From an uncultured Candidatus Saccharibacteria bacterium (GTDB lineage: Bacteria; Patescibacteriota; Saccharimonadia; Saccharimonadales; UBA7683), in contig CAZWBG010000001.1 in NCBI GenBank assembly GCA_964632215.1, positions 495,863 through 559,862 of the forward strand: 64,000 bases of DNA, written 5' to 3'. Position numbers and translations under genes: made by a program. The notes beneath the pieces are model-generated. The model saw only the letters and a list, made by a program, of their open reading frames with translations. It was not told the origin of the DNA and ran no database searches. Positions 7,144-63,464 of this stretch are shown in pieces; within the stretch, counting starts at the first letter, position 1, and every line of letters starts with the position of its first letter.

Positions 7144-8216
7144 GCACCCACCACATCATCATCTTTAGTAAGCGCTAATCCGGCACAGGTTAAAAACCTA
7201 GGTAGATCTGCATACTCAGGTGGCTCTAGATGAGCAAATGAAATATGCTTGCCCCAAGGTGCAGAAACTCGGGTTGGAATATGAGTTGCGTTTGTAATGT
7301 AATCTCCAAGGCCTGGCATATTTGCACCACCACCTACAATAATAATCTGTGCTACTTCGCTATCTTGCCGTATCCGCTCTTCGTAGAACCGAACGAGGTT
7401 CTGAATCTCAACAACAACCTTGTCTAAGATTGGTGCCACTGCTTGCTGAATGTTCTTTTGACTTGGACCAGCACTCAGACCATGAGATATCTTAAGTCGT
7501 TGGGCTTTGTCTTGTGCGATATGAATTTTTTTAGCGATTGCTTCAGTTAAGCTATTGCCACCCTCGTCCACCGTACCCGTAACGCGCAGTGTAGCATCAA
7601 GAATTCCAACGTCTGTAGAATCGCCCCCTGCATCAAGGATAATATACGGATTGTCGACATTCAGATCTTCGTACATCTTACAAAGCTGAGCGTTTGCCCG
7701 AATATTAGTCTGCACAACCGCTAACTCCAGACCCAGTAGGTCACAAACTGCCGTGTAAGAGTCTATGATATCTCGGGGTGCAGCCTCCATACGTACTATC
7801 GTGTTGTCGGGGTCATCTGTCTCGGTTACTTCGTAGTTATAGTAAATATTTTTTGCGGAAAGTGGCACCGACTGCTCAACCTCTAACTGTACGGCGTTAT
7901 CAAGCTCTTTTTTTGACATTCTCGGCAGTGTTAACACACGCGTAAACACATGCGAAACCGGAACACTCATTACGACACGGTTTGTCATAAGCTCGCCCTG
8001 CAAATGATTTGCCAGTAGATCATCTATCAGCTTTGCAGCCTCAGGTATGTTCGTAATAACGCCATCTTTAACAATGTGTTCATCTGTCGCAATACTACCA
8101 TAACCCTTTACAACCGCCTTCTGGCGATGTGTCTCGAGCTGCATTACTTTGATAGTTTGTGAGCCAATATCTAAGCCAAAAAGTGGTCGTTTATGATAAA
8201 AGAGCTGTGTTTTCAT
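7140..8216 (-). CDS. pilM: Type IV pilus assembly ATPase-fold protein PilM
   Basis: 358 aa with actin-like fold motifs FGLDIGSQTIKVMQL and ILDAGGDSTDVGIL. Confidence 0.85.
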   Translation of the reverse strand: MKTQLFYHKRPLFGLDIGSQTIKVMQLETHRQKAVVKGYGSIATDEHIVKDGVITNIPEAAKLIDDLLANHLQGELMTNRVVMSVPVSHVFTRVLTLPRMSKKELDNAVQLEVEQSVPLSAKNIYYNYEVTETDDPDNTIVRMEAAPRDIIDSYTAVCDLLGLELAVVQTNIRANAQLCKMYEDLNVDNPYIILDAGGDSTDVGILDATLRVTGTVDEGGNSLTEAIAKKIHIAQDKAQRLKISHGLSAGPSQKNIQQAVAPILDKVVVEIQNLVRFYEERIRQDSEVAQIIIVGGGANMPGLGDYITNATHIPTRVSAPWGKHISFAHLEPPEYADLPRFLTCAGLALTKDDDVVGA

Positions 8217-8314
8217 TTTATAGTATTCTATCTATGTATTCCGTCTCTATTGATACTTAGTATAAGCATAACTGGTTTATTGACATGGCGCAAATCTTTA
8301 TTACCAGACTATTG

Positions 8315-9730
8315 CTATTCGTAGAATTGCTGATAGCTCGTGATTGTCCAGGTTCTATTGCCTGAAGAAAGTTTTGTACCAAATGTAACCGTACCCGCAC
8401 CGCTCATATCCACCGTCTGACCCAGGGCAGCACCTACGTTACCACTACCACCAATCGAGACCTTACCCCAGTAAGCTTGGAAGATCATTCCCGGCAGATT
8501 TGTTCCGCCATCAACGCGAACAGTTTCAACACCCTGCGAGTTTTTCAAATCATTACCAGTTAACGCCGTACAGTTCGGGTTGCAGCTTGCCGAGGCTTTC
8601 ATGCTAATAAAGTGAATACCTGTACCAAACTTGTTAGCGACCAACTGGGCAGAACCACCAATTGTGATCTTGCCGTCTACTAAGACCACCGGGCGAGTCG
8701 TACCGGCACTATCGTCTACCTTAATTTTTGAAGCACCACCGATAGTTAGATCTCCAGTAATATAAGTATTGCCCCTCATAACAATGTCACAACTTCCACC
8801 CACGTTCACATTACCCGTCAGCCTAAGATCGGCTGGCCACGTACGATCAAACGGCCAGTCAGCACAGACATAGGTATTAGAAGACCCAGTACCTGTAGTT
8901 TGCACCGCACCAACTTGTGCTGGCTTGTCATAGGTTGGGGTAGATATTGGTGGACTCACGCAACTGAGCAGTAACCCCTGGCCACTGCTACCTCCTAAGA
9001 TATTACCAGCAGGATCTGGACCTCGACTCGTTTGACCAGTTGCACAAACAGTTCCATAAATCTTGGTACTCCAATCCATGGTGATGGGCTGTGAGCTTGT
9101 ACAAACTTGTGGGTATGTAGGTCCTGGGGTATTGCCTGTAGGACACACCTGGTTCGCCACCTTCACCTGTAGTGGCTGGCTCTGCGTACCAATACGGGCA
9201 GCACCGTTGAGGCGAATTGTACCGTTCACATAAACATCGGAGTTCGTAATGTTCGCGCTACCACCCAAAATTAGCCCCCCAGGACCAGTGTGCACAGAAT
9301 AACCCTCCGACCCCGTACCAACTGTAGTAACTCTTACAACACGTGTGTTAATAAGCTTGTCTGAGCCATGCGCGTATATCCTCCCGATAGAAATGATGGT
9401 TTTTGAATTATCAGCAGCAGCATTTGTCACCGTTGTAGTAAACACGCCTCTACCTTGAGTCTCATTGTTAAAGAATTCCTGTTCTGTCTCATAACCCGCA
9501 AAATCGTCACTCTGGTTTAACTGCAGAATAGACTGCTCAACTCCTGCCTCAGAAAGTAACTGAGCGTTTGCAGTATAGACGTTCCGAGTTGTAATACTAT
9601 ACTGCCCGAGAATCAAGTTGGCGAGTGAGAGCCCAAGCACAAGCATGACGACTGTTAAAATCATCAACGTACCGAGCAGCGAGCCAGTTTCGTCTTGCTT
9701 CATACTTTTGTGTGTAAATAGTTTACTCAT
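8315..9730 (-). CDS. Large PilX-like pilus protein (candidate tip or minor pilin with beta-helix-like body)
   Basis: 471 aa. The N-terminus is a charged leader followed by LLGTLMILTVVMLVLGLSLANLIL. The body has Gly/Thr/Asn-rich units (NITNSDVYVNGTIRLNG; LTGNVNVGGSCDIVMRGNTYITGDLTIGGASKIKV). It overlaps the upstream minor pilin gene by 8 nt. Confidence 0.6.
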   Translation of the reverse strand: MSKLFTHKSMKQDETGSLLGTLMILTVVMLVLGLSLANLILGQYSITTRNVYTANAQLLSEAGVEQSILQLNQSDDFAGYETEQEFFNNETQGRGVFTTTVTNAAADNSKTIISIGRIYAHGSDKLINTRVVRVTTVGTGSEGYSVHTGPGGLILGGSANITNSDVYVNGTIRLNGAARIGTQSQPLQVKVANQVCPTGNTPGPTYPQVCTSSQPITMDWSTKIYGTVCATGQTSRGPDPAGNILGGSSGQGLLLSCVSPPISTPTYDKPAQVGAVQTTGTGSSNTYVCADWPFDRTWPADLRLTGNVNVGGSCDIVMRGNTYITGDLTIGGASKIKVDDSAGTTRPVVLVDGKITIGGSAQLVANKFGTGIHFISMKASASCNPNCTALTGNDLKNSQGVETVRVDGGTNLPGMIFQAYWGKVSIGGSGNVGAALGQTVDMSGAGTVTFGTKLSSGNRTWTITSYQQFYE

Positions 9731-35346: not shown

Positions 35347-36456
35347 CTAGTGAAAGATACCCTTCTTCTTGCTGGTCTTAAGCTCTTGGAGTAAATCTTT
35401 TTGCTGCTTACTTAAGTTAGTTGGGGTATCGACCAGTATGGTAACAATATGCGCGCCGCGGCTACTCTCGCGCAAGCGTGGTACACCGTGACCAGAAAGT
35501 TTAAAATCTGTACCACTCTGAGTTCCTGCTGGGACCTTCATCTTCACGGGGCCATCTACCGTTTGAACCTCTATCTCGGCGCCCAGCGATGCATCAATCA
35601 TACTTACATGTTCCGAGGAGAGAATAAGATCACCTTCTCGCGTGAAGTGCTTGTGCGGCTTCACATTCAGCTGCACATACAGATCACCCTTATTCCCGTT
35701 AGCTGCGGCCTCACCATGCTCGCGGAGGCGGATCACCGCTCCGTCATCAATTCCGGCTGGAATTTTAATAGTAATCTCCTGCTTGACCCGCTCTACTCCA
35801 GTTGCCTTACAAACACTACATGGTTTCTCGGGTATTTCACCGCGGCCGTGACAGTTACGACAAACTGCGGCTTGCTGAATAGTACCAAACACGGTGTTCA
35901 TCTGTTGAACGACCTGGCCCGAACCTTTACAGACGTCGCAGGTCTTTAGCCCATATCCGGGCTCTGCTCGGCTACCCTTACAGTGCGTACAAACATCATT
36001 CATTTGCAAGTGAATAGTTTTCTCAACACCAAATACTGCCTCTTCAAAACTTAACATAACCTCAGTTTGAACATCCCGACCCATATCTTCGCCACGGGGT
36101 TGTTGTGGGCCACCACCACCAAAAAAGCTACCAAAAATATCTCCGAGGCCCATATCGCCAAAGTCGAAATGCATGTTTTGACCCTGGCCACCAAAGCCCT
36201 GGAAACCTTCAAATGGATTACCCCCAGGTGCGCCATCTCCACCTACGCCAGCATGACCAAACTGGTCATACCTTTGGCGCTTGGTTGCATCTTTTAGGAC
36301 TTCGTAGGCTTCATTTGCTTCTTTAAATTTGGCTTCATCGCCGCCCTCTTTATCTGGATGGTGCTTAACGGCAAGCTTACGAAAAGCCTTCTTGATCTCA
36401 TCTGCTGAGGCTTCTTTTTTAATACCTAAAATTTCATAATAATCACGTTTTGCCAT
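35347..36456 (-). CDS. dnaJ: Co-chaperone DnaJ
   Basis: J domain with HPD (KHHPDKE), a Gly/Phe-rich region, and four Cys-x2-Cys zinc-finger motifs. Confidence 0.95.
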   Translation of the reverse strand: MAKRDYYEILGIKKEASADEIKKAFRKLAVKHHPDKEGGDEAKFKEANEAYEVLKDATKRQRYDQFGHAGVGGDGAPGGNPFEGFQGFGGQGQNMHFDFGDMGLGDIFGSFFGGGGPQQPRGEDMGRDVQTEVMLSFEEAVFGVEKTIHLQMNDVCTHCKGSRAEPGYGLKTCDVCKGSGQVVQQMNTVFGTIQQAAVCRNCHGRGEIPEKPCSVCKATGVERVKQEITIKIPAGIDDGAVIRLREHGEAAANGNKGDLYVQLNVKPHKHFTREGDLILSSEHVSMIDASLGAEIEVQTVDGPVKMKVPAGTQSGTDFKLSGHGVPRLRESSRGAHIVTILVDTPTNLSKQQKDLLQELKTSKKKGIFH

Positions 36457-36460
36457 TAAT

Positions 36461-37066
36461 TTATCCTATCAAGCTATAAAAATATTCAGAGAAACGGGTT
36501 AGTACGAGGGTGATAACAATTAAGTAGGTTATGGCGATGAACTTGCCCGAGTTATTAGCAAATACGCTCCCAAGAGCACCTCTTAGTTTAATGTGTCCTT
36601 GCCGAATGTTCCAAGCCAACGTTGTCCAGAATATTGGAATAGTGACGGTCCAGACGGCTATACAGTACAGGCAAAGCTTACCAATATCGTACAAGCTTTG
36701 AGAGATCAGCCAAGCGCAGAACAAGAAACCGAATGCGGTACCAGCTTGAAATGTTAGCCAATACCAACGTTTTGGAATCCTGACACCAGCTAGGAGTGTC
36801 ATACCAACAACCAATACACAGGCGAAGCCAAAGATACCAATGAGTGGATTAGGAACACCGAAGAATACCTTGCCCTGCCACGAGCCAATAACTGGCGAAC
36901 AGGCCACTACTGGGCTAATTGAGCAGCTCGGGACGTAGTCTGGATTGGCTGCAATATGTATCTTCTCTATAGTTAAGATAGTGGATGCTAATACGCCGAT
37001 AACCGCACCGATTACCAAAACCCAGGGAAACACTTTTTCAAACGATAGTTTTTTTAGTATATGCAT
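36461..37066 (-). CDS. Vitamin K epoxide reductase (VKOR) family membrane protein
   Basis: 201 aa with 4-5 TM helices, a loop Cys pair (CSISPVVAC) and a CLYC active-site motif in a TM helix. Confidence 0.8.
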   Translation of the reverse strand: MHILKKLSFEKVFPWVLVIGAVIGVLASTILTIEKIHIAANPDYVPSCSISPVVACSPVIGSWQGKVFFGVPNPLIGIFGFACVLVVGMTLLAGVRIPKRWYWLTFQAGTAFGFLFCAWLISQSLYDIGKLCLYCIAVWTVTIPIFWTTLAWNIRQGHIKLRGALGSVFANNSGKFIAITYLIVITLVLTRFSEYFYSLIG

Positions 37067-37169: not shown

Positions 37170-39092
37170 TTACTTTTCTTTCTTTTCTTCTTCAACAACT
37201 TCGCCTTCTACAGCTTCGTCTTCCTTTGCCGCGTCATCCTTCTTCTCGTCACCCTTAGCAGCCTCTTCGGCCTTGGCAGCTTCTTCATACATCTTGGCAC
37301 CAATTGGCTGAATTTTATCCATCAGCTCTTTAGTAGCTTTTTCAATCTCGTCTTTATCAGCTGAAGCCTGGTGCTTTTTAGCTTCTTCTACGGCTTCAGT
37401 GATGATCTTTTTGTCATCGTCTGAGATCTTATCTTTATACTCATCGGGCATCTTCTCAGCCTGGTAGATGGCATTCTCAAGTAAATTCTTAGACTCAGCT
37501 GCTTCGCGCTTCTTTTTGTCATCCTCAGCATGAGTCTCAGCTTCTTTTTGTGCCTTTTCTACGTCTTCTTTACTCAAGTTTCCAGAATTCTGAATAGTAA
37601 TAGACTGCTCTTTGCCCGTGCCTTTGTCTTTTGCCGCTACATTTAAGATACCGTTGGCATCAAGGTTAAAGGTTACTTCAATTTGTGGCACACCACGTGG
37701 CGCTGGAGCAATACCATCTAGAATAAAACGTCCGAGTGACTTGTTGTCGTTTGCCATCTCACGCTCACCTTGTAGTACGTGAATCTCAACCTGCGGCTGA
37801 CTATCGGCAGCAGTTGAGAAGGTCTCAGACTTACTGGTTGGAATAGTCGTGTTACGCTCAATCAGTTTGGTTGTCACGCTACCCATAGTTTCGATACCAA
37901 GAGAAAGCGGGGTCACATCAAGCAGTAGTACGTCTTTGACATCTCCAGCTAGTACACCACCCTGAATTGCAGCACCTACAGCGACTACTTCGTCAGGATT
38001 TACACCCTTAAGTGGATCTTTGCCAAAGATTGATTTTACCTTAGCTACTACCGCGGGCATGCGAGTCATACCACCAACCAAGATAACTTCGTCGATATCT
38101 TTTGGTGTAAGCTTGGCATCTTTTAGGGCTTTTTCACAAGGCCCAGCAGTTCGTTCAATAAAGTCTTTAACCAAATCTTCAAGCTTGGCACGAGTCATAC
38201 TGTATTCAAAGTTAATCGGACCATCATCTCCTTGGTCAAGGAATGGTAGGTTGATTTCTGCAGTTTGCGCGCTAGAAAGTTCCTTCTTGGCTTTTTCAGC
38301 CTCTTCCTTGAGACGCTGCATAGCCATAGCGTTGCTACGCAGGTCTTTGCCGTGCTCTTTTTTAATTTCGTCGAGGAAGAAGTTAACAATCTTATTGTCG
38401 AAGTCTTCACCACCGAGGTGTGTATCGCCGTGTGTACTCTTTACTTCGAAGACACCATCACCAAGCTCGAGTACTGAAACGTCGAAGGTACCACCACCAA
38501 GGTCGAATACCACTACAGTTTCGTTCTTGTTCTTTTTATCAAGGCCGTAGGCAAGTGCTGCGGCAGTTGGCTCATTAATGATTCGCTTAACTTCAAGACC
38601 GGCAATTTTACCCGCATCCTTCGTTGCTTGACGCTGTGAATCGTCAAAGTAGGCAGGTACAGTTATGACTGCCTCAGACACTGGCTCACCCAAGAAGGCT
38701 TCAGCATCAGCTTTTAGCTTAGAAAGAATCATGGCTGAAACTTCTTCTGGCGTGTATTCCTTACCTGCCATCTTGACGGCCACGCCATTACCTTTTTCTA
38801 CAATTTGGTAGGGCATAATGTCGTGGTCTTTTTGGACTTCGTTATCTTTCCACTTACGGCCGATTAAACGTTTTACACCGAAGATGGTGTTTTCTGGGTT
38901 TGTAACTCGCTGACGGTTTGCAATTTGGCCAACCAAGCGCTCTTCTTTACCGTCTTTATCCTTTTTTACCGCGACAACTGAAGGTGTTGTTCTATTACCT
39001 TCGCTGTTGGTAATAATTTCAGGTGATCCTGCCTGCATAACAGCCATGGCTGAGTTGGTAGTTCCTAAATCAATTCCGATAATTTTACCCAT
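37170..39092 (-). CDS. dnaK: Chaperone DnaK (Hsp70)
   Basis: [17 protein letters not shown], full-length Hsp70 with an acidic Lys/Glu tail. Confidence 0.97.
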
Positions 39093-42689: not shown

Positions 42690-43139
42690 ATGAAAGCAGC
42701 AGATTTTTCACTTACCGATCAAGATGGAACTACTAAAACCCTAAAAGATTTTGCAGGCACATGGTTAGTTCTCTATTTTTACCCAAAAGATGATACACCT
42801 GGTTGCACAGTTGAGGCTTGTAGCCTGCGAGATGCCAACGATGAACTTATTGCGCTGGGCGCTAACGTAGTTGGTATCAGCAAAGATGATGCAGATTCGC
42901 ACCGTAATTTTAAGGCCAAGCACCAGCTTAACTTCACACTACTAAGCGATCCTGATGGTAAAACTATCGAGGCTTATGGTGCATGGGGCAAGAAAATGTT
43001 TGGCAAAGAAGGAATTCTCAGAAAAACTTTTATTATCAACCCTTCGGGTGAGATCGTAAAGACCTACGGCCGCGTCACCCCGCTCGGTCACGGCGAACAA
43101 GTAGTAGAAGAGCTCAAAAGACTACAATCGACTAGTTAA
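42690..43139 (+). CDS. bcp: Thiol peroxidase Bcp (peroxiredoxin)
   Basis: FYPKDDTPGCTVEAC active-site motif. AAGGAG Shine-Dalgarno sequence. Confidence 0.9.
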   Translation: MKAADFSLTDQDGTTKTLKDFAGTWLVLYFYPKDDTPGCTVEACSLRDANDELIALGANVVGISKDDADSHRNFKAKHQLNFTLLSDPDGKTIEAYGAWGKKMFGKEGILRKTFIINPSGEIVKTYGRVTPLGHGEQVVEELKRLQSTS

Positions 43140-54801: not shown

Positions 54802-54878
54802 TGGTAGCAGCGACTGGAATTGAACCAGTGACCTCGAGCTTATGAGTCTCGCGCTCTAACCAACTGAGCTACGCTGCC
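54802..54878 (-). tRNA. tRNA with CAU anticodon (elongator Met most likely; Ile2 not excluded)
   Basis: 77-nt cloverleaf read by hand. GGCAGCG/CGCTGCT acceptor with G1-U72, D arm GCTC..GAGC, loop CTCATAA, T arm ACTGG-TTCAATT-CCAGT, encoded CCA. It lacks the initiator features (no three G-C pairs in the anticodon stem). Confidence 0.85.
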
Positions 54879-55215: not shown

Positions 55216-57900
55216 TTAATTCTCTTTACCGAGGAGATCTAGCGGCTTGTTGAGTAGTTTCATAATAAGTACCAGTGCTATACTCATACCCGCTATATAC
55301 AGCCATGGCTGATGACCAAACGGCACAACCTCGAAGACTTTTGCAAACTGCGGAATGTAGATAACGCTCAATTGGAGTAGTAATGAGGCAACAATAGCAA
55401 CTGTCAGCAGCGGGTTACTGAACCAGGCAATTTTGTAGTCTGTTCGAATATCAACCAAACGCACCAGCTCGAACACTACCATACCTGTAAAGACAACCGA
55501 AGTAGCAATCTCGGCTGGCATAGTTTTATACAGCGTTAGCAGAGCAATGGTCATCAGCGTACCGAAAATAAAGATTTCAAACCACGTTCGCTTATTAATA
55601 ATTGCCTCTTGGTACTTGCTTGGCAGGTGCTTCATGATAGTCTTAGCTGCTGGATCAGAGCCCAATGCAATGGCCGGCAAACCGTCGGTCACAATATTAA
55701 TAAAGAGTATCTGAGAAGGGCTAAGCAGCAGTTTACGGGCAAAAATAATACCCGCAAGTATAGTTAATACTTCAGCAATATTAGCTGAGAGTAAAAAGTT
55801 GACGAACTTACGAACATTATCGTAGATACCTCGACCCTCTTCAATTGCTTTAATAATGGTTGTGAACTGATCGTCGAGCAAGATAAGGTCCGCCGCCTCT
55901 TTAGTGACATCAGTACCAGTGATACCCATCGCTATACCAATATCTGCGGCCTTAATGGCTGGCGCATCATTCACGCCGTCGCCTGTCATAGCCACCTGGT
56001 GACCATGCTTTTTAAGAGCCTGTACGATACGAATTTTATGTTCTGGATTCACCCTTGCATACACACCAAGCGTTTCCACGCGGCGCTCAAACTCACTCTG
56101 CGAGAGCTTGTCGAGCTCCATACCTGTAATTGAATTTCCTTTTATACCGAGCTGCAAGGCTATGGCCCGAGCAGTATCAATATGGTCGCCTGTAATCATA
56201 ACGACGCGCATACCAGCCTCGGCCTGGACACGCTCAATCACTGCTGCCACTTCGCGGCGAGGCGGGTCTATCATGGCTTGCAGACCAACAAACGTGAGGC
56301 CTGTTTCCGCAGACTGGGCCTTTTGTGGCAAAGTTTTTTCTTCTTTTATGGCAAAAGCGAGGACCCGAAGAGCTTCTTGGGCAAAGCTCTTATTTGCCGC
56401 CTCAATCTTTTTACGATGTGCTGGGGTTAAGGCTACGCGTTTGCCACCCTGCAACACATGACTACAGTGTTCTAAAAGTACGTCTGGCGCACCCTTGGCG
56501 GTTACTAAGTACCCCTGCTTGCTCTTTTGTATGGTGCTCATCATCTTGCGGTCTGAAGTAAATGGAAATTCCTTAACACGCGGATACAGCTGCTGGAGCT
56601 CGTGGTACTCTATTTTGCCTTTTGCAGCACTAATGAGCAATGAACCCTCGGTAGGGTCGCCAATGACCTTACCGTGCTTCAGGTGGGCATTATTACAGAG
56701 AGCACCCGCCGTAAAAAGCTGATTAAGCGATGTTTCTGATAAAGCAGCTGATCTGATGATTTTACCTGCGGTACCATAGCCCTCGCCCTCAACTTCCACA
56801 ATTTGGTCTTCTACATATAGTTTGCGGACGGTCATTTCACCCTTGGTGAGTGTACCGGTTTTATCTGAACAGATGACATCTGTACTACCAAGCGCCTCTA
56901 CGGCTGAGAGTTTACGGACCAAAGCATTCTGCGTGGCCATGCGCCGAGCCCCGAGCGCCAAGCTGATACGCACGACGAATGCCAAACCCTCTGGTATAGC
57001 TGCTACAGCCAAAGCCACAGCGGCCGTAAAGGAGAAGATGAGACGCGAGGCTAAGTTCTGTGAGAGCGCTTGTTTGTCGAAAAAGAGTTCAACCAAAAAA
57101 ACGACTACACACAAAATAATGACTATAATACCGAGTTTCTTGCCCAAAGCGTCGAGTTTACGCTGCATAGGTGTTGGTTCGCTCTCGACGCCATCAACTA
57201 ATTGGGCAATTTTGCCGAGTTGCGTGGAGCCACCAGTTTCTACCACCACCGCTACACCCGTTCCGCTACTTACATAAGTACCGCTAAAAAGCATGTTTCT
57301 CTGATCACCCAACGCAAGTGTCTGACCCAATTGCTCACTGTCTTTATCTGCTACGCTCGATTCACCAGTTAAACTAGCCTCGTTTACCATCAGGGTTTCG
57401 GCCAAGAGCAGGCGCATATCGGCTGGTATTTTCTGGCCTTCTTCAATTATGACGATATCACCAGGTACTAAATCTTCAACATCAATCTCAATAACATGCC
57501 CACCACGCTTAACTTTTGTGCGGTACGCAACCAACGAACGCAGAGCCTCAACCGTTTTTTCTGCTCGGTATTCATTAAAGAAACCAACTATCGCAATAGC
57601 AAACACAATGGCATAGATCAGCAAAGATTCGGTCGAAGCGTGCCCGGATTCAATAAATCCAAGCACTAGTGACACGCTTGCAGCTAGTAGTAGAATAATG
57701 ATCAAGACGTCTTTAAACTGGCCAAAAAAGATCTTGAAGACCGAGGCACCCTTGGTAGACTCTAACCGATTATTGCCAAAATGCGCCAATCTGCTACTCA
57801 CCTCAGCAGGTGCCAGTCCTTGTTCTATATCAGTATCTAGGGCCCCTACAACTTCCTTCGAGGACTGATTATACCAATGTTGTTTTTGTATTTTGTCCAT
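55216..57900 (-). CDS. P-type cation-transporting ATPase (P2/Ca2+-type)
   Basis: 894 aa. N-terminal cation-ATPase segment (GLAPAEVSSRLAHFGNNRLE), DKTGTLT phosphorylation site, TGDGVNDAPA hinge, about 10 TM helices. Confidence 0.93.
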   Translation of the reverse strand: MDKIQKQHWYNQSSKEVVGALDTDIEQGLAPAEVSSRLAHFGNNRLESTKGASVFKIFFGQFKDVLIIILLLAASVSLVLGFIESGHASTESLLIYAIVFAIAIVGFFNEYRAEKTVEALRSLVAYRTKVKRGGHVIEIDVEDLVPGDIVIIEEGQKIPADMRLLLAETLMVNEASLTGESSVADKDSEQLGQTLALGDQRNMLFSGTYVSSGTGVAVVVETGGSTQLGKIAQLVDGVESEPTPMQRKLDALGKKLGIIVIILCVVVFLVELFFDKQALSQNLASRLIFSFTAAVALAVAAIPEGLAFVVRISLALGARRMATQNALVRKLSAVEALGSTDVICSDKTGTLTKGEMTVRKLYVEDQIVEVEGEGYGTAGKIIRSAALSETSLNQLFTAGALCNNAHLKHGKVIGDPTEGSLLISAAKGKIEYHELQQLYPRVKEFPFTSDRKMMSTIQKSKQGYLVTAKGAPDVLLEHCSHVLQGGKRVALTPAHRKKIEAANKSFAQEALRVLAFAIKEEKTLPQKAQSAETGLTFVGLQAMIDPPRREVAAVIERVQAEAGMRVVMITGDHIDTARAIALQLGIKGNSITGMELDKLSQSEFERRVETLGVYARVNPEHKIRIVQALKKHGHQVAMTGDGVNDAPAIKAADIGIAMGITGTDVTKEAADLILLDDQFTTIIKAIEEGRGIYDNVRKFVNFLLSANIAEVLTILAGIIFARKLLLSPSQILFINIVTDGLPAIALGSDPAAKTIMKHLPSKYQEAIINKRTWFEIFIFGTLMTIALLTLYKTMPAEIATSVVFTGMVVFELVRLVDIRTDYKIAWFSNPLLTVAIVASLLLQLSVIYIPQFAKVFEVVPFGHQPWLYIAGMSIALVLIMKLLNKPLDLLGKEN

Positions 57901-57946
57901 GCTTATTAATATGGTACACTGAGTTCAAGCATAAGGAAAATAAAAA

Positions 57947-58813
57947 ATGATACTATTTCTAGCCAGCATTGATCTAGAACAAACAATTGCACAGCAATCT
58001 AAGACGGTTGTTTTGGTCGCAGCAGCACTACTTGCGCTGCTTGTTGTGCTTTCCGTAATCCTGCACAATCGGGCACCAAAACTTAACCCTTGGCTATTTG
58101 GAGCCATTAGCCTGACTATGATACTACCGACGCTCTTCTTGGTGGTGAGCACGGTGTATTTAAATGTAAAATCCGAATCTGGTGGCCCTATTCACTGGCA
58201 TGCAGATATTGAACTCTGGGCCTGTGATACCCAGCTCAACCTTCGAGATCCTAAAGGTGCTCTCAACAATAAAATTGGTACTCCAACACTGCACGAACAT
58301 AATGACAAACGTATACATCTTGAGGGCGTCGCGGTAGATATCTCTCGTGATGCTTCTGTTGGTAAATTTATGGAAGTAGTTGGTGGTGAAATTACTGACA
58401 AAAGCTTTACTATTCCTCTGAACGAAGCGGATATTGCAAGCCTGCCTGCTCAGATTGGCACGTTTGTAGAGACCGCTAGCTCTGGACCAAGTGCAACCTT
58501 TATAACTGGGCAAAACTGTGGTGACCAAACCGCCGAGGTGCAAATGTTTGCCTACCGCTTTGATCAAGCTACCAATACCTACTCTCAGCAAAAAGTAGAG
58601 CACCCTGCTCAGTGGGTCATTGCACCTGAAAGCCAAGTACCTCCTGGAGATTGTTTGATCGTTGAATTTGGTGCACCAAAAGAGCGTACTGATAGACTCT
58701 GCGCCCAGTACGGTGTACGAGATAAACACCGCTGCCAAGAGTTTGGCGTAAAACCCGACAAGCTTGATGTGTGTGACATTGAAGAAGTACCCCATGGAGG
58801 CAATGATGTTTGA
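57947..58813 (+). CDS. Membrane-anchored extracytoplasmic Cys/His-containing protein, unknown function
   Basis: 288 aa with two N-terminal TM helices. The exported domain has HWHADIELWAC and HEHNDKRIH segments and seven Cys. Its stop overlaps the start of the ccdA-like gene. Confidence 0.6.
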   Translation: MILFLASIDLEQTIAQQSKTVVLVAAALLALLVVLSVILHNRAPKLNPWLFGAISLTMILPTLFLVVSTVYLNVKSESGGPIHWHADIELWACDTQLNLRDPKGALNNKIGTPTLHEHNDKRIHLEGVAVDISRDASVGKFMEVVGGEITDKSFTIPLNEADIASLPAQIGTFVETASSGPSATFITGQNCGDQTAEVQMFAYRFDQATNTYSQQKVEHPAQWVIAPESQVPPGDCLIVEFGAPKERTDRLCAQYGVRDKHRCQEFGVKPDKLDVCDIEEVPHGGNDV

Positions 58814-59510
58814 TCTGCCTACACTCGCCCTAGTCATCGGCTCAGCCGCGATTGACTCTATTAACCCGTGTGCTATTGGTGTACTTATCTTGATGGTCTC
58901 GGTGGTTCTTGGTACTGGCAAATCACCCCGCCGACTCCTGCTACTTGGTGGTGCTTACATTTTCGCCATATTTGCAACCTACCTCATAGCTGGGCTTGGA
59001 CTCATTTACTTCTTTAGCGAAGTACCAATTGTAGTTGCCGAATACTTAAGTATCGCTGTGGCAATGCTCGTGATTCTCGCTGGAATTTTAGAAATTAAAG
59101 ACTACTTCTGGTACGGCAAAGGTCCAAGCCTGCACATACCAGCTAAGTTTGCTAAAAAGATCCAAGAGATGAGTGGTGGTGCAACCAGCGTTGTAAGTGT
59201 GATGCTGCTGGGTGTCTTCGTAGCCGCGGTAGAATTGCCGTGCACAGGTGCACCGTACTTAGCCATCATTACCATACTAAGAATTGATTTCAACTTCCAG
59301 GCCTTGATGCTCATGGTGCTCTACAACCTCATCTTTGTTCTACCACTGATTGTTATTCTCATCATGATCGCCGGTGGTGCCAAACTCAGCTCAGTCAAAT
59401 CTTGGAAGGAAGAAAAGAAGGGTACTATGCGCCTGATGGTCGGCGTCCTACTCGCAGCGCTTGGCTGGCTCCTCATATTAATTGCAAACGGTACCATTAA
59501 TTTTGGGTAA
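58803..59510 (+). CDS. CcdA/DsbD-family thiol-disulfide electron transporter
   Basis: Six TM helices with the two conserved membrane Cys motifs SINPCAIGVL and ELPCTGAPYL. The track start 58764 lies inside the upstream gene. Confidence 0.8.
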   Translation: MMFDLPTLALVIGSAAIDSINPCAIGVLILMVSVVLGTGKSPRRLLLLGGAYIFAIFATYLIAGLGLIYFFSEVPIVVAEYLSIAVAMLVILAGILEIKDYFWYGKGPSLHIPAKFAKKIQEMSGGATSVVSVMLLGVFVAAVELPCTGAPYLAIITILRIDFNFQALMLMVLYNLIFVLPLIVILIMIAGGAKLSSVKSWKEEKKGTMRLMVGVLLAALGWLLILIANGTINFG

Positions 59511-59512
59511 TC

Positions 59513-59782
59513 ATGCACAGAGTTATTAAAAAGGCTAAACACACCGAACACTACCAACACCAGAAACTCTACGGCAGTATTCACAGTGCTTGCCTCAGTG
59601 TTGGTGAATTTGTCGGCTCAGCTGAAGTAACGGCTGAAAATGTCTGTCGAGAAGTAGAAGTTTGGTTAAGTAAGAAATATGAGATAACATCTTCTGATAT
59701 CCGCCGTGTCGCTGGTGAATTCCTCCAAGCCTACAATCCTTCGGCTGCCTATATTTACGTAACGCATAACGATATAAATTAA
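59513..59782 (+). CDS. Stand-alone ATP-cone-like domain protein
   Basis: 89 aa. RVIKKAKHTEHYQHQKLYGSIHSA...ITSSDIRRVAGEFL follows the ATP-cone pattern (VIKRDG..E.F...KI..SI..A ... I...V). Starts 2 nt after the ccdA-like stop. Confidence 0.5.
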   Translation: MHRVIKKAKHTEHYQHQKLYGSIHSACLSVGEFVGSAEVTAENVCREVEVWLSKKYEITSSDIRRVAGEFLQAYNPSAAYIYVTHNDIN

Positions 59783-59789
59783 GGGGTAC

Positions 59790-61175
59790 ATGGTGGGAAA
59801 AAAATCAACATACGACTATGATTTACTCATAATAGGTAGCGGCGCTGGTGGTAGCGTAGCGGCTCATATTGCTGCTAAGCAAGGTAGGCGCGTGGCAATT
59901 GTAGAAGCTGAATATATCGGCGGTGAATGCCCCAACATAGGTTGCGTACCGACCAAGGCCTTGCTGCATGCTGCCGAGATCTACGAAGCTACCAAGAACG
60001 GTGGGAAGTTTGGCATACGTGGCAGCACAGTTGGATACAACTACCCCACCATCAAGGCTTGGAAAGATCTAGCTGTTAAACGCACCGGGACCTACTTGGG
60101 TGAAGAAATGTACCACGAAGAAGGTATTATGTTCATCCGTGGCAACGCCCACTTCATAGACCCCCATACTATTACCATCGGCAAAGCTCGTTTTAGCGCT
60201 CAGAACTTTCTGATTGCAACGGGATCAAAGATAAGTGTTCCACCCATTTCTGGGCTAGAAAAAACTGGCTATCTCACCTACCGTGAGGCTATTGACCTGA
60301 AACGACCACCTCGAAGCCTAGCTATTATTGGCGGTGGCGCCATTGGCTGTGAGTTTGCGCAGCTGTTTGCTATCTTTGGCACTAAAATTTACATAATAGA
60401 TGCTGCCAAGAGGCTACTTTCACGCGAGGATGCAGCGGCAGGAGAATTCTTGGAAAAACGCTTCCGTGAAGAGTACGGTATGCAAGTTTTTACGAGCGCC
60501 AGCGTTGAGACTGTCGAGAAAGTTGGTGCAGGCAAGCAAGTACGCCTGAAAGTTGATGGCAAAAAACACTCTATTCAGGTGGAAGACATACTCATTGCCA
60601 CCGGCAAGCGTGGTGTGGTAGATATCGGCCTAGAAAACGCTGGTGTTGCCTACGAACACGATAGTATTACCGTCAACCAACACTTGCAAACTACGGCTCC
60701 GCACATTTATGCAGCTGGAGACTGTGTTGGCCCTTATCAATTTACACATACTGCTACCTACCAAAGCCGAATCGTAGCCTATAATCTCTTGCACCCTCGG
60801 AAGAAGCGTTCGGTTGATTACCGCGCCGTGCCACGCTGTATCTTTACCAATCCAGAGATTGCCAGTGTTGGATTAACCGAAGAGGAACTAAAGACTCAGG
60901 GTGCTAGTTATAAAGCTGCCACAGCTTCCATAACCGTCGTTGGGCGAGCCAATACCGCAGATGTTGACGACGGCTTTGTAAAAGTCTTGTCCGATAAGAA
61001 AACTGGCATCTTACTTGGGGCCACTATTGCTAGCCCTCACGCTGGTGAGATGATCCACGAGCTTGCAGTAGCTGTGCAAAACCGACTCACGGCCGAGGCC
61101 ATTACCGAGACCATTCACGCCTTCCCTACGTGGTCAGAAGCAGTGCGAGTAGCCTGTAATAAGCTACTTCGTTAG
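59790..61175 (+). CDS. FAD-dependent pyridine nucleotide-disulfide oxidoreductase (Lpd / glutathione-reductase family)
   Basis: GSGAGGS FAD site, redox-active GGECPNIGCVPTK, second GGGAIGCE dinucleotide site, C-terminal HAFPTWSE interface motif. Confidence 0.9.
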   Translation: MVGKKSTYDYDLLIIGSGAGGSVAAHIAAKQGRRVAIVEAEYIGGECPNIGCVPTKALLHAAEIYEATKNGGKFGIRGSTVGYNYPTIKAWKDLAVKRTGTYLGEEMYHEEGIMFIRGNAHFIDPHTITIGKARFSAQNFLIATGSKISVPPISGLEKTGYLTYREAIDLKRPPRSLAIIGGGAIGCEFAQLFAIFGTKIYIIDAAKRLLSREDAAAGEFLEKRFREEYGMQVFTSASVETVEKVGAGKQVRLKVDGKKHSIQVEDILIATGKRGVVDIGLENAGVAYEHDSITVNQHLQTTAPHIYAAGDCVGPYQFTHTATYQSRIVAYNLLHPRKKRSVDYRAVPRCIFTNPEIASVGLTEEELKTQGASYKAATASITVVGRANTADVDDGFVKVLSDKKTGILLGATIASPHAGEMIHELAVAVQNRLTAEAITETIHAFPTWSEAVRVACNKLLR

Positions 61176-61320
61176 AGCTTATGCTCGTAAAAAATAAGTT
61201 TCTGTTATATAATCTACAAATGCAGTTGTACGTGTATGGGTCGTTTGTGTAAGCTAAGGTTCCCGCGTAACGTAAGATGGTCGAACTGCTAGAAGTTTAA
61301 ACAAAGGACATACATACATA

Positions 61321-61632
61321 ATGGCATATCGACTTTTTGTAGGCGGACTTCCATTCAGCACAACAAGTGAGGAATTGGAAAAGTTATTTGCAGAGCATGG
61401 CGCAGTAGCATCAGCTCGTGTGATAACTGATCGCGACTCAGGACGTTCAAAAGGCTTTGGTTTCGTTGAGTTTGAAAACGACGACGAAGGAAAAGCAGCT
61501 GAAAAAGCATTGAACGGCGCTGAGCTTGGCGGCCGCACATTAACGGTTAATGAAGCTCGTCCCCAAGAGGATCGTCCACGACGTGACTCTAACGGTGGTG
61601 GCGGTGGTTCATTCCGTGAACGCAGCTGGTAA
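61321..61632 (+). CDS. RRM-type RNA-binding protein with Gly/Arg tail
   Basis: RNP-2 LFVGGL and RNP-1 KGFGFVEF. C-terminal RPRRDSNGGGGGSFRERSW. Confidence 0.9.
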   Translation: MAYRLFVGGLPFSTTSEELEKLFAEHGAVASARVITDRDSGRSKGFGFVEFENDDEGKAAEKALNGAELGGRTLTVNEARPQEDRPRRDSNGGGGGSFRERSW

Positions 61633-61652
61633 TTTTTACTAGTTCGTAGAGG

Positions 61653-61680
61653 AACTCCGGATTCGTCCGGAGTTTTTTTA
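61653..61680 (+). terminator. Rho-independent terminator after the RRM gene
   Basis: AACTCCGGA-TTCG-TCCGGAGTT followed by a T-run of seven. Confidence 0.8.
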
Positions 61681-61772
61681 TACTCAAGAATAACCCGAGA
61701 AAGCATAATCTCTTTGTAAAAATAACTACGTAGGCATATACTAGAGCTATTACAATAACAGGAGGTTACATC

Positions 61773-62237: not shown

Positions 62238-63362
62238 CTAGAGTAAGGCGTCTCTGAAACTATAAAAAGCAGGCTTGGGCTTGTAGTTATAGTCGAAAGC
62301 TAAAGGGTCAGAATTTGGCGTACCAGGTAGATAATTATACCAAGTCTCCTTATCGGTAATACCTAGTAGCGAGAAACTCGGGCAGACTTTTGACTCAATA
62401 CATGCACGCATCATTTCATAGTAGATACCTGACTGTATATCTTCCCGAGCTTTCTTGTCGGCCTTTACGTCGTTCATATTAACGTCAAATTCTGTCACAT
62501 ACACCTTCAGGCCAAGATCACCGAACCTCTTCATGTTAGATATAACTTCATCTTTTACGGGTGGATGCGTACCGTCTATGTGCATCTGCATGCCTATGCC
62601 ATCTATGGGTATTCCCCTTGCAAGTGCGTCTTTTACGTAATCGTACATCCTATTGGAAGTATCGTTCATGCGTTCATTGTTAAAATCGTTGAGTATTAAT
62701 TTCGAGTTTGGGTCAGCTTGTCGAGCCCAAATAAAAGATTGGTCGATGTAACTCTGATCTCCGATATTGTCTGCCCACCAGTCATTCAAACCATACATGT
62801 GTTGACCTCGAGTGAATACCTCGTTAACCACTGTCCACTCCTGAACCTTGCCACTGTAGCGCTTGCCCATCGTATCAATATGATTATGAATAAACTCCAT
62901 AAGCTCCGGCTTATTATAGTTACCCTTTAATAGCCAGTCTGGTAGCCATTTCTCTTCACCCCAAATGTAATGATGCATCTGGATAGCCATATTATTCTTT
63001 TGGGCGAAAGCTACCACCTCATCAACACGGCTAAAATTAAACTCAGTTGGCGAAGGACGTAGATCTGTATCTGTAAAATGCCAATTGGGTTGATTATCTA
63101 CCAATGCCAGATCAAATTGTGAAGTGAGTATGTCGGTGTAGGGCTTCTCGTTAAGCAGCTTGGGCATTGCAAAATTACCTACTTGAATGCCTTTTGCGGC
63201 GGCCAACGTCTTTAATGAGGGCTCAGGTAATACTGGCGTCTTGGCTATGGTATGGTTTTTAATTAGCAAAAAGGAACAAAGAGCACCCACTGCGAGAATT
63301 AATACTACAATAAAACCAGTATTTCTTTTGGTGCTGTAATATTTTTTTATAGCATGGGCCAT
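62238..63362 (-). CDS. Glycoside hydrolase family 10 endo-beta-1,4-xylanase, membrane-anchored
   Basis: WTVVNEVF (acid/base Glu region) and VYVTEFDV (nucleophile Glu region). N-terminal TM helix after ATG 63362. The track start 63416 is a TTG. Confidence 0.8.
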   Translation of the reverse strand: MAHAIKKYYSTKRNTGFIVVLILAVGALCSFLLIKNHTIAKTPVLPEPSLKTLAAAKGIQVGNFAMPKLLNEKPYTDILTSQFDLALVDNQPNWHFTDTDLRPSPTEFNFSRVDEVVAFAQKNNMAIQMHHYIWGEEKWLPDWLLKGNYNKPELMEFIHNHIDTMGKRYSGKVQEWTVVNEVFTRGQHMYGLNDWWADNIGDQSYIDQSFIWARQADPNSKLILNDFNNERMNDTSNRMYDYVKDALARGIPIDGIGMQMHIDGTHPPVKDEVISNMKRFGDLGLKVYVTEFDVNMNDVKADKKAREDIQSGIYYEMMRACIESKVCPSFSLLGITDKETWYNYLPGTPNSDPLAFDYNYKPKPAFYSFRDALL

Positions 63363-63464
63363 AGATGTAACTATAACCCACTCAGTAAGCAATAGGTACT
63401 TTAGACACGAACGCAAAACTTATTTTAGGTGTTTAAAACTTTTTGCTAATCCAGTGCTATGCGC

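Follow-up and report, generated by a model that had tools for sequence, protein, structure and literature searches.

A conserved gene module with a DsbD-like membrane protein and an undescribed exoprotein family in ultra-small bacteria and archaea

The locus and its conservation

The window analysed here is a stretch of 64,000 nucleotides (nt) from an uncultured Candidatus Saccharibacteria bacterium (assembly GCA_964632215.1, contig CAZWBG010000001.1). Towards its end lie five genes, in which a P-type ATPase is divergent from four plus-strand genes encoding an exported protein (hereafter, the exoprotein), a membrane protein with two Cys residues, a stand-alone ATP-cone protein and a flavoprotein disulfide reductase. 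The layout, with protein lengths in amino acids (aa), is as follows.

55216..57900, minus strand: P-type IIA cation ATPase, predicted Ca2+- and possibly Mn2+-type, 894 aa
57901..57946: AT-rich divergent intergenic region of 46 nt, between the ATPase gene and the four-gene operon
57947..58813, plus strand: exoprotein, 288 aa, with two transmembrane (TM) helices and an extracytoplasmic beta-rich domain
58803..59510, plus strand: six-TM, two-Cys membrane protein of the DsbD/CcdA superfamily, GAP/SfLAP-like, 235 aa
59513..59782, plus strand: stand-alone ATP-cone protein, predicted to be cytoplasmic, 89 aa
59790..61175, plus strand: class I flavoprotein disulfide reductase of a distinct clade, 461 aa

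The coordinates and spacings that an earlier note on this sequence gave for the five open reading frames (ORFs) were reproduced in the ORF list, and its family assignments hold: a Ca-type P-type ATPase, a DsbD-superfamily protein with both Cys, an ATP-cone and a flavoprotein reductase with GGECPNIGC. The plus-strand genes are separated by -11, 2 and 7 nt. A database protein identical to the membrane protein (P0121) has 234 aa, so that the start is probably the second ATG, at 58806, and the first spacing would then be -8 nt. The start codons of the ATPase and exoprotein genes diverge across the 46 nt between them, a position that suggests a regulatory role for this region. Sigma-70 and terminator scans of 57901-57946 remained at chance level, with no promoter placed, and a scan with Rfam found no element there. 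Metal-sensing riboswitches upstream of the operon or the ATPase gene were found neither in the window region nor in eight co-directional loci.

An alignment of the exoprotein was scanned against one genome per species, which yielded 70 loci (numbered with the prefix L). Most of them are from Saccharimonadia and Microgenomates (Levy- and Curtissbacteria), and one is from a Woesearchaeon. ORFs were called at each locus and scored with the five window proteins; the denominators below are the assessable loci. Exoprotein identity across these species-level genomes is about 45-55%. The membrane protein gene lies directly downstream of the exoprotein gene in 69 out of 69 loci, often overlapping it, and the ATP-cone and reductase genes are also found downstream (61 out of 68 and 62 out of 65 loci, respectively). 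The ATPase gene is immediately upstream in 57 out of 59 loci, in divergent orientation in 43 and co-directional in 14. The flanking genes vary among the loci for which neighbours were listed (L001, L003 and L004), and the named exoprotein homologues belong to Candidatus Saccharimonadales. Such an arrangement of five genes is far beyond chance and constitutes a conserved module of ultra-small bacteria. The synteny bears out the proposal that the four plus-strand genes form a unit; the lack of linkage in other genomes, named beforehand as a sign against it, was not what we found. The ATPase association that had been pointed out also holds, but treating this gene as a mere neighbour is too weak: because it is adjacent in 57 out of 59 loci, it is a part of the module and not a chance neighbour, and in 14 loci it belongs to the same operon.

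Nine contigs (L036, L047, L051, L059, L060, L063, L065, L067 and L068) carry a module of the type found in the candidate phyla radiation (CPR) in metagenome-assembled genomes labelled Gammaproteobacteria, Magnetospirillaceae or Lysobacterales. They include a 1.6-Mb 'chromosome' (OZ246394.1), and the gene content is Microgenomates-like; the labels or the binning of these contigs are probably wrong. An apparent fusion of the membrane protein and the ATP-cone in L023 (about 2355-2456) was discarded as an assembly artefact, given that a run of N joins the two ORFs.

A search with an archaeal homologue retrieved relatives in Woese- and Aenigmarchaeota, two groups of the DPANN archaea (named after Diapherotrites, Parvarchaeota, Aenigmarchaeota, Nanoarchaeota and Nanohaloarchaeota). 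Five loci, L078-L081 and L083, encode the exoprotein, the membrane protein and the ATP-cone, with no ATPase or reductase within the operon; two of them are labelled Aenigmarchaeota or archaeon and the rest are metagenome contigs. The third gene of L083 (89 aa) had no Pfam match. L082 holds a complete co-directional five-gene set. In L084, the triad is followed by a NUDIX gene and then by an ordinary, His-containing flavoprotein disulfide reductase outside the module clade, and the Woesearchaeon (L073) has only the exoprotein and the membrane protein. Core genes without an adjacent ATPase gene occur in the DPANN loci L073, L078-L081 and L083, and also in L008 and L072. The core formed by the exoprotein, the membrane protein and the ATP-cone is older and smaller than the five-gene module. 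Since DPANN genomes hold it without a clade-type reductase, the ATP-cone belongs to the core and not specifically to the reductase, and nucleotide regulation of the reductase, as the earlier note had supposed, is not the natural reading.

The L084 flavoprotein (7156-8517) has a normal active site (GGTCLN / HVHPTLAE), with a VKOR gene 1 kb further on; given this active site and its place outside the module clade in the tree, it was not counted as a module member. Genes resembling Cupredoxin_1 (PF13473) are no more than a few kb away from the core in L073 (293-748), labelled Woesearchaeota, and in the metagenome contigs L078 (3298-3723) and L081 (5625-6086 and 10588-10971), the match being weak in three of the four genes. 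In L081, an NqrB/RnfD-like gene adjoins them. These neighbours might be a sign of copper or electron transfer.

Exoprotein, membrane protein and ATP-cone

The exoprotein has its N-terminus outside, followed by TM1, a K/R-rich cytoplasmic loop, TM2 and the extracytoplasmic domain. The domain is placed outside because of this positive-inside pattern and because some relatives carry a cleavable signal peptide before the same arrangement. Searches of Pfam and NCBIfam assigned the protein to no family, Pfam searches at E<=1 with 22 of its relatives returned only noise from the TM region, and a profile search of the PDB gave zero matches. An AlphaFold2 model reached a predicted local distance difference test (pLDDT) score of 86, and Foldseek found no PDB match for it at E<0.5 (the best, at 0.53, was helical-hairpin noise), although the query kept the TM hairpin, which may have masked a weak match of the beta domain. 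No similarity to the alpha or gamma domains of DsbD was detected with hhalign. The family, which comprises 378 clusters at 50% identity among 1.84 billion representatives, is previously undescribed and found only in CPR and DPANN. Four relatives (P0413, P0418, P0438 and P0441) are longer, with 431-485 aa, a signal peptide and an extra C-terminal part of about 180-200 aa that has no Pfam match.

Two features of the exported domain are conserved. The HWHAD and HEHNDKRIH segments, both read correctly in the earlier note, belong to a His/Asp/Glu cluster (H83 H85 D87 E89 / H116 H118 D120 H124 E126) kept in about 225 out of 234 diverse members. The model places residues 81-92 in one strand and H124 and E126 in another; from strand geometry, H83, H85, D87, E89 and C93 should face the same side. 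The cluster resembles metal sites of the 'HxH plus H' kind, to which no homology was detected, and we infer that it binds a metal. The second feature is the Cys residues, of which there are six (C93, C191, C236, C252, C263 and C276) and not the seven previously counted. They co-vary as three pairs. C263 and C276 are either both there or both missing (pattern CCCCCC in 144 sequences, CCCC-- in 79), archaeal forms lose C236 and C252 together, keeping only C93/C191, and this last pair is kept everywhere. Its universality makes C93/C191 the likeliest of the three to be functional and possibly redox-active. The exoprotein is thus not a CcdA client of the thioredoxin-fold type, but a new His-cluster protein with three co-varying Cys pairs and no CxxC.

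The membrane protein is far more conserved than its neighbours, with 74-93% identity among the 120 relatives listed. Its sequence can be divided into six hydrophobic segments, and the K/R-rich loops between them fall on alternating sides. The window copy falls just short of PF11139 (SfLAP/GAP; 33.6 bits, cut-off 35), a family matched by 25 out of 25 relatives, while PF02683 (DsbD_TM) was matched by 5 out of 25 (best 5e-12). The window copy itself fails both PF02683 and the NCBIfam DsbD model (NF001419, E 1.8e-4, 20 bits vs 330), and a profile search of PDB sequences returned zero matches. Nevertheless, comparison with E. coli DsbD in hhalign gave 95.3% probability (E 2.4e-8) and paired C23 and C147 with the catalytic Cys of DsbD TM1 and TM4 (C163 and C285). 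In the motif alignment, NPC (C23) corresponds to TPC and LPCTGAP (C147) to SPCTTAP of DsbD. Both Cys are kept in 69 out of 70 orthologues. Assignment to a CcdA/DsbD type is therefore right as regards the two catalytic Cys, but the name CcdA is too specific for a PF11139/GAP protein that is related to DsbD only by profile comparison. Genes for cytochrome c synthesis (ResB/ResC/CcsBA, ResA) were found neither in the window region nor in the listed loci.

The small protein encoded next is, by its sequence, an ATP-cone, and nucleotide binding is predicted. The window copy is marginal against PF03477 (25.4 bits, cut-off 25.8), and clear matches were obtained with the orthologues in L003, L078, L080, L081, L082 and L084. 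An N-terminal motif, IVKRxGHxExYDxxKLYAS, is conserved among 62 sequences, and the family aligns with the cone of archaeal NrdR. A Cys pair acting as electron carrier was considered and rejected, as C27 occurs in 50 out of 62 sequences (and in the NrdR cone) and C45 in only 16 out of 62, leaving no conserved pair.

The reductase, its glutaredoxin substitutes and the ATPase

The reductase contains the Pfam domains Pyr_redox_2 and Pyr_redox_dim. It passes the NCBIfam model of lipoamide dehydrogenase (Lpd) by a narrow margin (TIGR01350, 409.4 bits vs a cut-off of 408.8) and stays below that of MerA (TIGR02053, 392.4 vs 454.45), being about equidistant from Lpd (409 bits), the PRK06370 FAD-oxidoreductases (396) and MerA (392), which all lie within 17 bits. 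Its best PDB match is MerA (5x1y, 2e-81), followed by Lpd (1ebd), and its best plasmid match is a Firmicute MerA, at 38.6% identity by tblastn and 37.7% in the trimmed alignment. Neighbour-joining placed the module reductases in a single clade apart from the references (Lpd and Gor of E. coli, Lpd of Ruegeria, a Rhizobium FAD-oxidoreductase and two MerAs); their identity to these references is about 29-38%, and to the two Lpds about 30-34%.

The active site sets these enzymes apart. E46, C47, P48 and C52 (GGECPNxGC) are invariant in 63 out of 63 orthologues, C47/C52 being the redox-active pair, while the position of the catalytic His is occupied by Phe in 43, Tyr in 20 and His in none (HAFPTWSE in the window copy). 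A Cys is present within the last eight residues in 58 out of 63 orthologues, at a position that varies (455, 456 or 461; Cys456 in the window copy), and this shifting position points to a functional rather than a structural constraint. At the NAD(P)H site, Saccharimonadia forms carry an acidic residue and Microgenomates forms Asn-Arg-Ser, so cofactor preference may differ between the two. With Lpd, the E3 subunit of 2-oxoacid dehydrogenase complexes, the reductase shares the fold, the domain order, the CxxxxC centre and the HA-x-PT-x-SE motif, and the acidic residue of the Saccharimonadia forms suggests use of NADH; it differs in the replaced His, in the separate clade and in its surroundings, as no E1/E2 genes were found in any locus with genes listed, including the window region. 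Firm grouping with E3, which the earlier note had named as the outcome that would speak against its idea, was therefore not observed.

The resemblance to MerA extends beyond the solved structures to the aromatic residue at the catalytic-His position and the C-terminal Cys, and the mer operon has the same logic of an external binding protein, a Cys-containing membrane protein and a cytoplasmic flavoprotein. However, the reductase ends in ...VACNKLLR, with a single Cys, where the two MerA references end in ...LSCCAG. Tyr194 of Tn501 MerA is matched by a Gly (of TGTxxG); at the place of Tyr535, the window copy has Phe, and only 20 out of 63 orthologues have Tyr. The reductase also lacks an NmerA domain and has GGECPN instead of GGTCVN. 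No relationship of the membrane protein to MerT, MerC or MerF was detected, and the exoprotein offers His and carboxylates, not CxxC. Like high-Mr thioredoxin reductases, the enzyme is a class I flavoprotein whose tail Cys could reach the CxxxxC of the partner subunit and a protein substrate, but its tail has about 5-8 residues with one Cys, not Cys-Sec or Cys-Cys, its His-Glu dyad is incomplete, and models of the thioredoxin-glutathione reductase type score it poorly (143 bits). The active site thus differs from those of both Lpd and MerA. Another MerA/Lpd-like flavoprotein beside small membrane proteins was seen on the Rhizobium plasmid NZ_CP030764.1 (L088), where a PRK06370-type FAD-containing oxidoreductase lies between DUF4126 and DedA-family membrane proteins.

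In two loci, L054 (9707-10000) and L055 (9729-10016), the gene after that of the ATP-cone encodes not a reductase but a glutaredoxin of 95-97 aa with a CPFC motif (PF00462, 59.5 and 52.0 bits, cut-off 22.9; E 4e-16 and 9e-14). That two unrelated kinds of cytoplasmic thiol-disulfide oxidoreductase occupy the same slot supports the view that it supplies reductant to the DsbD-like protein, and this is the strongest indirect evidence for such a supply, in line with the donor role first proposed for the last gene. Both operons are variants of the module (L054 1022-10000, L055 1248-10016). Ahead of the ATPase, the exoprotein, the membrane protein, the ATP-cone and the glutaredoxin, in this order, they encode another P-type ATPase, which scores about 480 bits against that of the window, followed by a response regulator and a domain resembling the divalent-cation transporter MgtE. 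These upstream genes reinforce a divalent-cation context.

The ATPase of the module is, on sequence grounds, a P2A Ca2+-type pump, with Ca2+ and possibly Mn2+ as the predicted ion. It carries the Pfam domains E1-E2_ATPase, Cation_ATPase_N/C and Hydrolase, and scores 660.8 bits with the PMR1-type and 652.8 bits with the SERCA-type NCBIfam models. Its best PDB match, over the full length, is Listeria LMCA1 (6zhf, E 5.6e-178, 597 bits). As in LMCA1, SERCA and SPCA, the DKTGT, TGES and PEGL motifs and all SERCA site I and II residues (E309, N768, E771, N796, T799, D800 and E908) are present and conserved; unlike them, the module ATPase scores under the NCBIfam equivalog cut-offs. IPEGL, ScNiaEV and INiVTDGlPA, with the N/E of TM5 and the NxxTD of TM6, and the Glu of TM8 are conserved in 61 module-linked ATPases, among which no conserved extracytoplasmic Cys was found. 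The CtpE ('P6') family of Ca-uptake ATPases was considered and provisionally set aside: published descriptions give M. smegmatis CtpE 791 aa and VPEGL, as against 894 aa, IPEGL and a match to LMCA1 here. We know of no Ca2+-ATPase that is genetically locked to a thiol-redox module.

A possible envelope thiol-redox module and competing explanations

Gene linkage, family membership, conserved residues and topology lead us to favour tentatively, just short of calling it probable, a dedicated envelope thiol-redox module in which the DsbD-like protein passes reducing equivalents outward to the exoprotein. NAD(P)H would reduce C47/C52 of the flavoprotein, the operon-encoded enzyme of Saccharimonadia and Microgenomates. 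The tail Cys of this enzyme, or the glutaredoxin in one lineage, would then reduce C23/C147 of the DsbD-like protein by direct transfer, and this protein may in turn reduce the membrane-anchored exoprotein, probably at C93/C191 beside the putative metal site. The ATP-cone may act on the membrane protein from the cytoplasmic side, presumably as a nucleotide sensor that exerts control, and the SERCA-like pump could handle the Ca2+ or Mn2+ needed by the exoprotein or its surroundings. Thus, the relay from NAD(P)H through a flavoprotein and a CcdA-type protein to an exported protein, suggested earlier, stands as regards the conserved unit, the two DsbD-type Cys and a reductase that is not an E3; the step from flavoprotein to membrane protein is one that we still only infer.

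DsbD and CcdA systems are the classic means of carrying reducing power over the membrane and, to our knowledge, every characterised pathway of this kind runs from thioredoxin to a thioredoxin-fold acceptor. As in DsbD, CcdA and ScsB, the six-TM protein of the module carries a Cys in each of TM1 and TM4, which align with the catalytic Cys of DsbD, and it is linked genetically to cytoplasmic thiol-disulfide oxidoreductases on one side and to an extracytoplasmic Cys-containing partner on the other. In contrast, its membrane protein scores best as PF11139 and not as PF02683, its partner is a His-cluster, beta-rich exoprotein instead of a thioredoxin-fold or CxxC acceptor, the putative donor encoded in its operon is not thioredoxin but a class I flavoprotein or a glutaredoxin, the ATP-cone is a fixed partner, and cytochrome c maturation genes were found neither in the window region nor in the listed loci. 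The module would therefore keep the membrane Cys pair of DsbD/CcdA and change both ends, acceptor and donor. What is new is the acceptor family, the flavoprotein clade as putative donor, and the ATP-cone and Ca-pump as partners; a transmembrane thiol relay of the DsbD type is known. Our literature searches found no description of the module, the nearest papers dealing with other DsbD-linked systems.

Several observations weigh against this redox reading. The AlphaFold2 model of the membrane protein (pLDDT 51) was unusable for a fold search and lends the predicted fold no support. All six Cys of the exoprotein may be structural disulfides, and the module has neither a thioredoxin-fold periplasmic acceptor nor a CxxC. 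The reductase lacks the His base used by its disulfide-reducing relatives, its tail Cys is single and is absent in 5 out of 63 orthologues, and we know of no route by which a flavoprotein dimer of about 100 kDa with a buried CxxxxC would reach membrane-embedded Cys. The core loci L078-L081 and L083 have no reductase in the operon, and the reading gives no mechanistic explanation for the linkage to a Ca-type pump or to an ATP-cone.

An alternative closer to mer would have the exoprotein capture a thiophilic metal, the membrane Cys pair carry it as a bis-thiolate (as in MerT), the flavoprotein reduce it and the ATPase export cations. It would account for the MerA affinities of the reductase in structure and plasmid searches, its tail Cys and the aromatic residue at the position of Tyr in MerA and of His in disulfide reductases, and it could accommodate the His/Asp/Glu cluster, the cupredoxin-like genes near three archaeal loci and the MgtE-like protein and second ATPase upstream in L054/L055. 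We nonetheless regard it as improbable: the reductase has no C-terminal Cys-Cys, has Gly in place of Tyr194 and falls well below the MerA model (392 vs 454); a glutaredoxin, which cannot reduce metal ions, can take its place; the ATPase has the hard-cation site of SERCA and not the CPx motif of soft-metal pumps; the putative ligands of the exoprotein are His and carboxylates and not rich in Cys; and the DPANN core exists without the reductase. A slimmer chance still is given to the exoprotein being an accessory subunit of the ATPase, comparable to the beta subunit of Na,K-ATPase or to CDC50, that senses redox state or metals, with the DsbD-like protein, the reductase and the ATP-cone tuning the pump. 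Accessory subunits of P-type ATPases generally combine TM segments with a disulfide-rich ectodomain, as the exoprotein does, and the two genes are adjacent in 57 out of 59 loci, with a gap of 1 nt in L054, one of the 14 co-directional cases. Yet the tightest pairing is that of the exoprotein with the membrane protein (69 out of 69), the core is found without an adjacent ATPase gene in the eight loci named above, the ATPase has no conserved extracytoplasmic Cys, and LMCA1, its closest solved relative, works without a subunit.

Scavenging has a similarly small probability in our estimate. Under this explanation, the exoprotein would be a metallo-hydrolase, such as a nuclease or phosphoesterase, using Ca2+ or Mn2+ from the pump, the membrane protein a transporter of the LysE superfamily, of which DsbD is a member, and the ATP-cone a feedback from the nucleotide pool. 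CPR and DPANN, to which the exoprotein family is restricted, are known for lacking nucleotide biosynthesis; clusters of the form HxH...HxHxD...H are typical of metallohydrolases; the core includes the ATP-cone, which senses nucleotides in ribonucleotide reductases and NrdR; and a NUDIX gene comes after that of the cone in L084. On the other hand, a solute carrier would not need two Cys that sit exactly at the DsbD catalytic positions and are kept in 69 out of 70 orthologues, the repeated association with a flavoprotein or glutaredoxin would be left unexplained, and Foldseek found no PDB hydrolase with the fold of the exoprotein. Extremely unlikely, finally, is a set of unrelated housekeeping neighbours consisting of an E3, a CcdA for c-type cytochromes and a Ca2+ pump. 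The reductase does just reach the lipoamide dehydrogenase cut-off, and relatives of the membrane protein are named 'cytochrome c biogenesis protein CcdA' by the Joint Genome Institute, but gene order is kept across 70 species-level genomes of at least two CPR classes, none of the 63 reductases, which form their own clade, has the catalytic His of E3, and neither E1/E2 nor cytochrome c maturation genes were found in the listed loci. The automated names 'dihydrolipoyl dehydrogenase', 'CcdA' and 'GAP family protein' are thus misleading, and the first two would falsely imply 2-oxoacid dehydrogenase complexes and c-type cytochromes.

Returning to the envelope thiol-redox reading, its most extended form holds that CPR and DPANN share an envelope machine made up of a DsbD-like conduit, an obligate ATP-cone and a His-cluster metalloprotein of new fold, which in CPR would be fed directly from NAD(P)H by a His-less flavoprotein, with no thioredoxin, and coupled to a Ca2+/Mn2+ pump. 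In this full form it is doubtful. If true, ultra-small episymbionts would export reducing power to a surface metalloenzyme in a nucleotide-gated and thioredoxin-independent manner. In any case, the module is one of few conserved multi-gene units common to two groups of ultra-small, host-dependent prokaryotes, and it may relate to their surface biology.

The window also holds the two other thiol-related genes reported for it. A VKOR gene (36461-37066) lies in an unusual arrangement between dnaJ (35347-36456) and dnaK (37170-39092), all on the minus strand; its presence suggests an oxidising envelope, in which a reductive branch makes sense. On the plus strand, 42690-43139 encodes a Bcp-type AhpC/TSA peroxiredoxin (E 1e-40), which normally needs a thioredoxin-type reductant. 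Motifs of thioredoxin, TrxB and glutaredoxin (WCxPC, CPYC, TrxB) were absent from the 64-kb window, so the genome should encode the reductant of Bcp elsewhere. Among the immediate neighbours of the module, a tRNA gene (54805-54878, minus strand, Rfam 68.6 bits) lies between a G5-domain gene and the ATPase gene. Directly downstream of the reductase gene, an RNA-binding protein of the RRM type with a Gly/Arg-rich tail is encoded at 61321-61632 (plus strand), overlapped by an antisense ORF of 150 aa (61254-61706) that is probably spurious. Further downstream, a gene of the GH10 xylanase family (62238-63416, minus strand) encodes a protein with an N-terminal TM segment.

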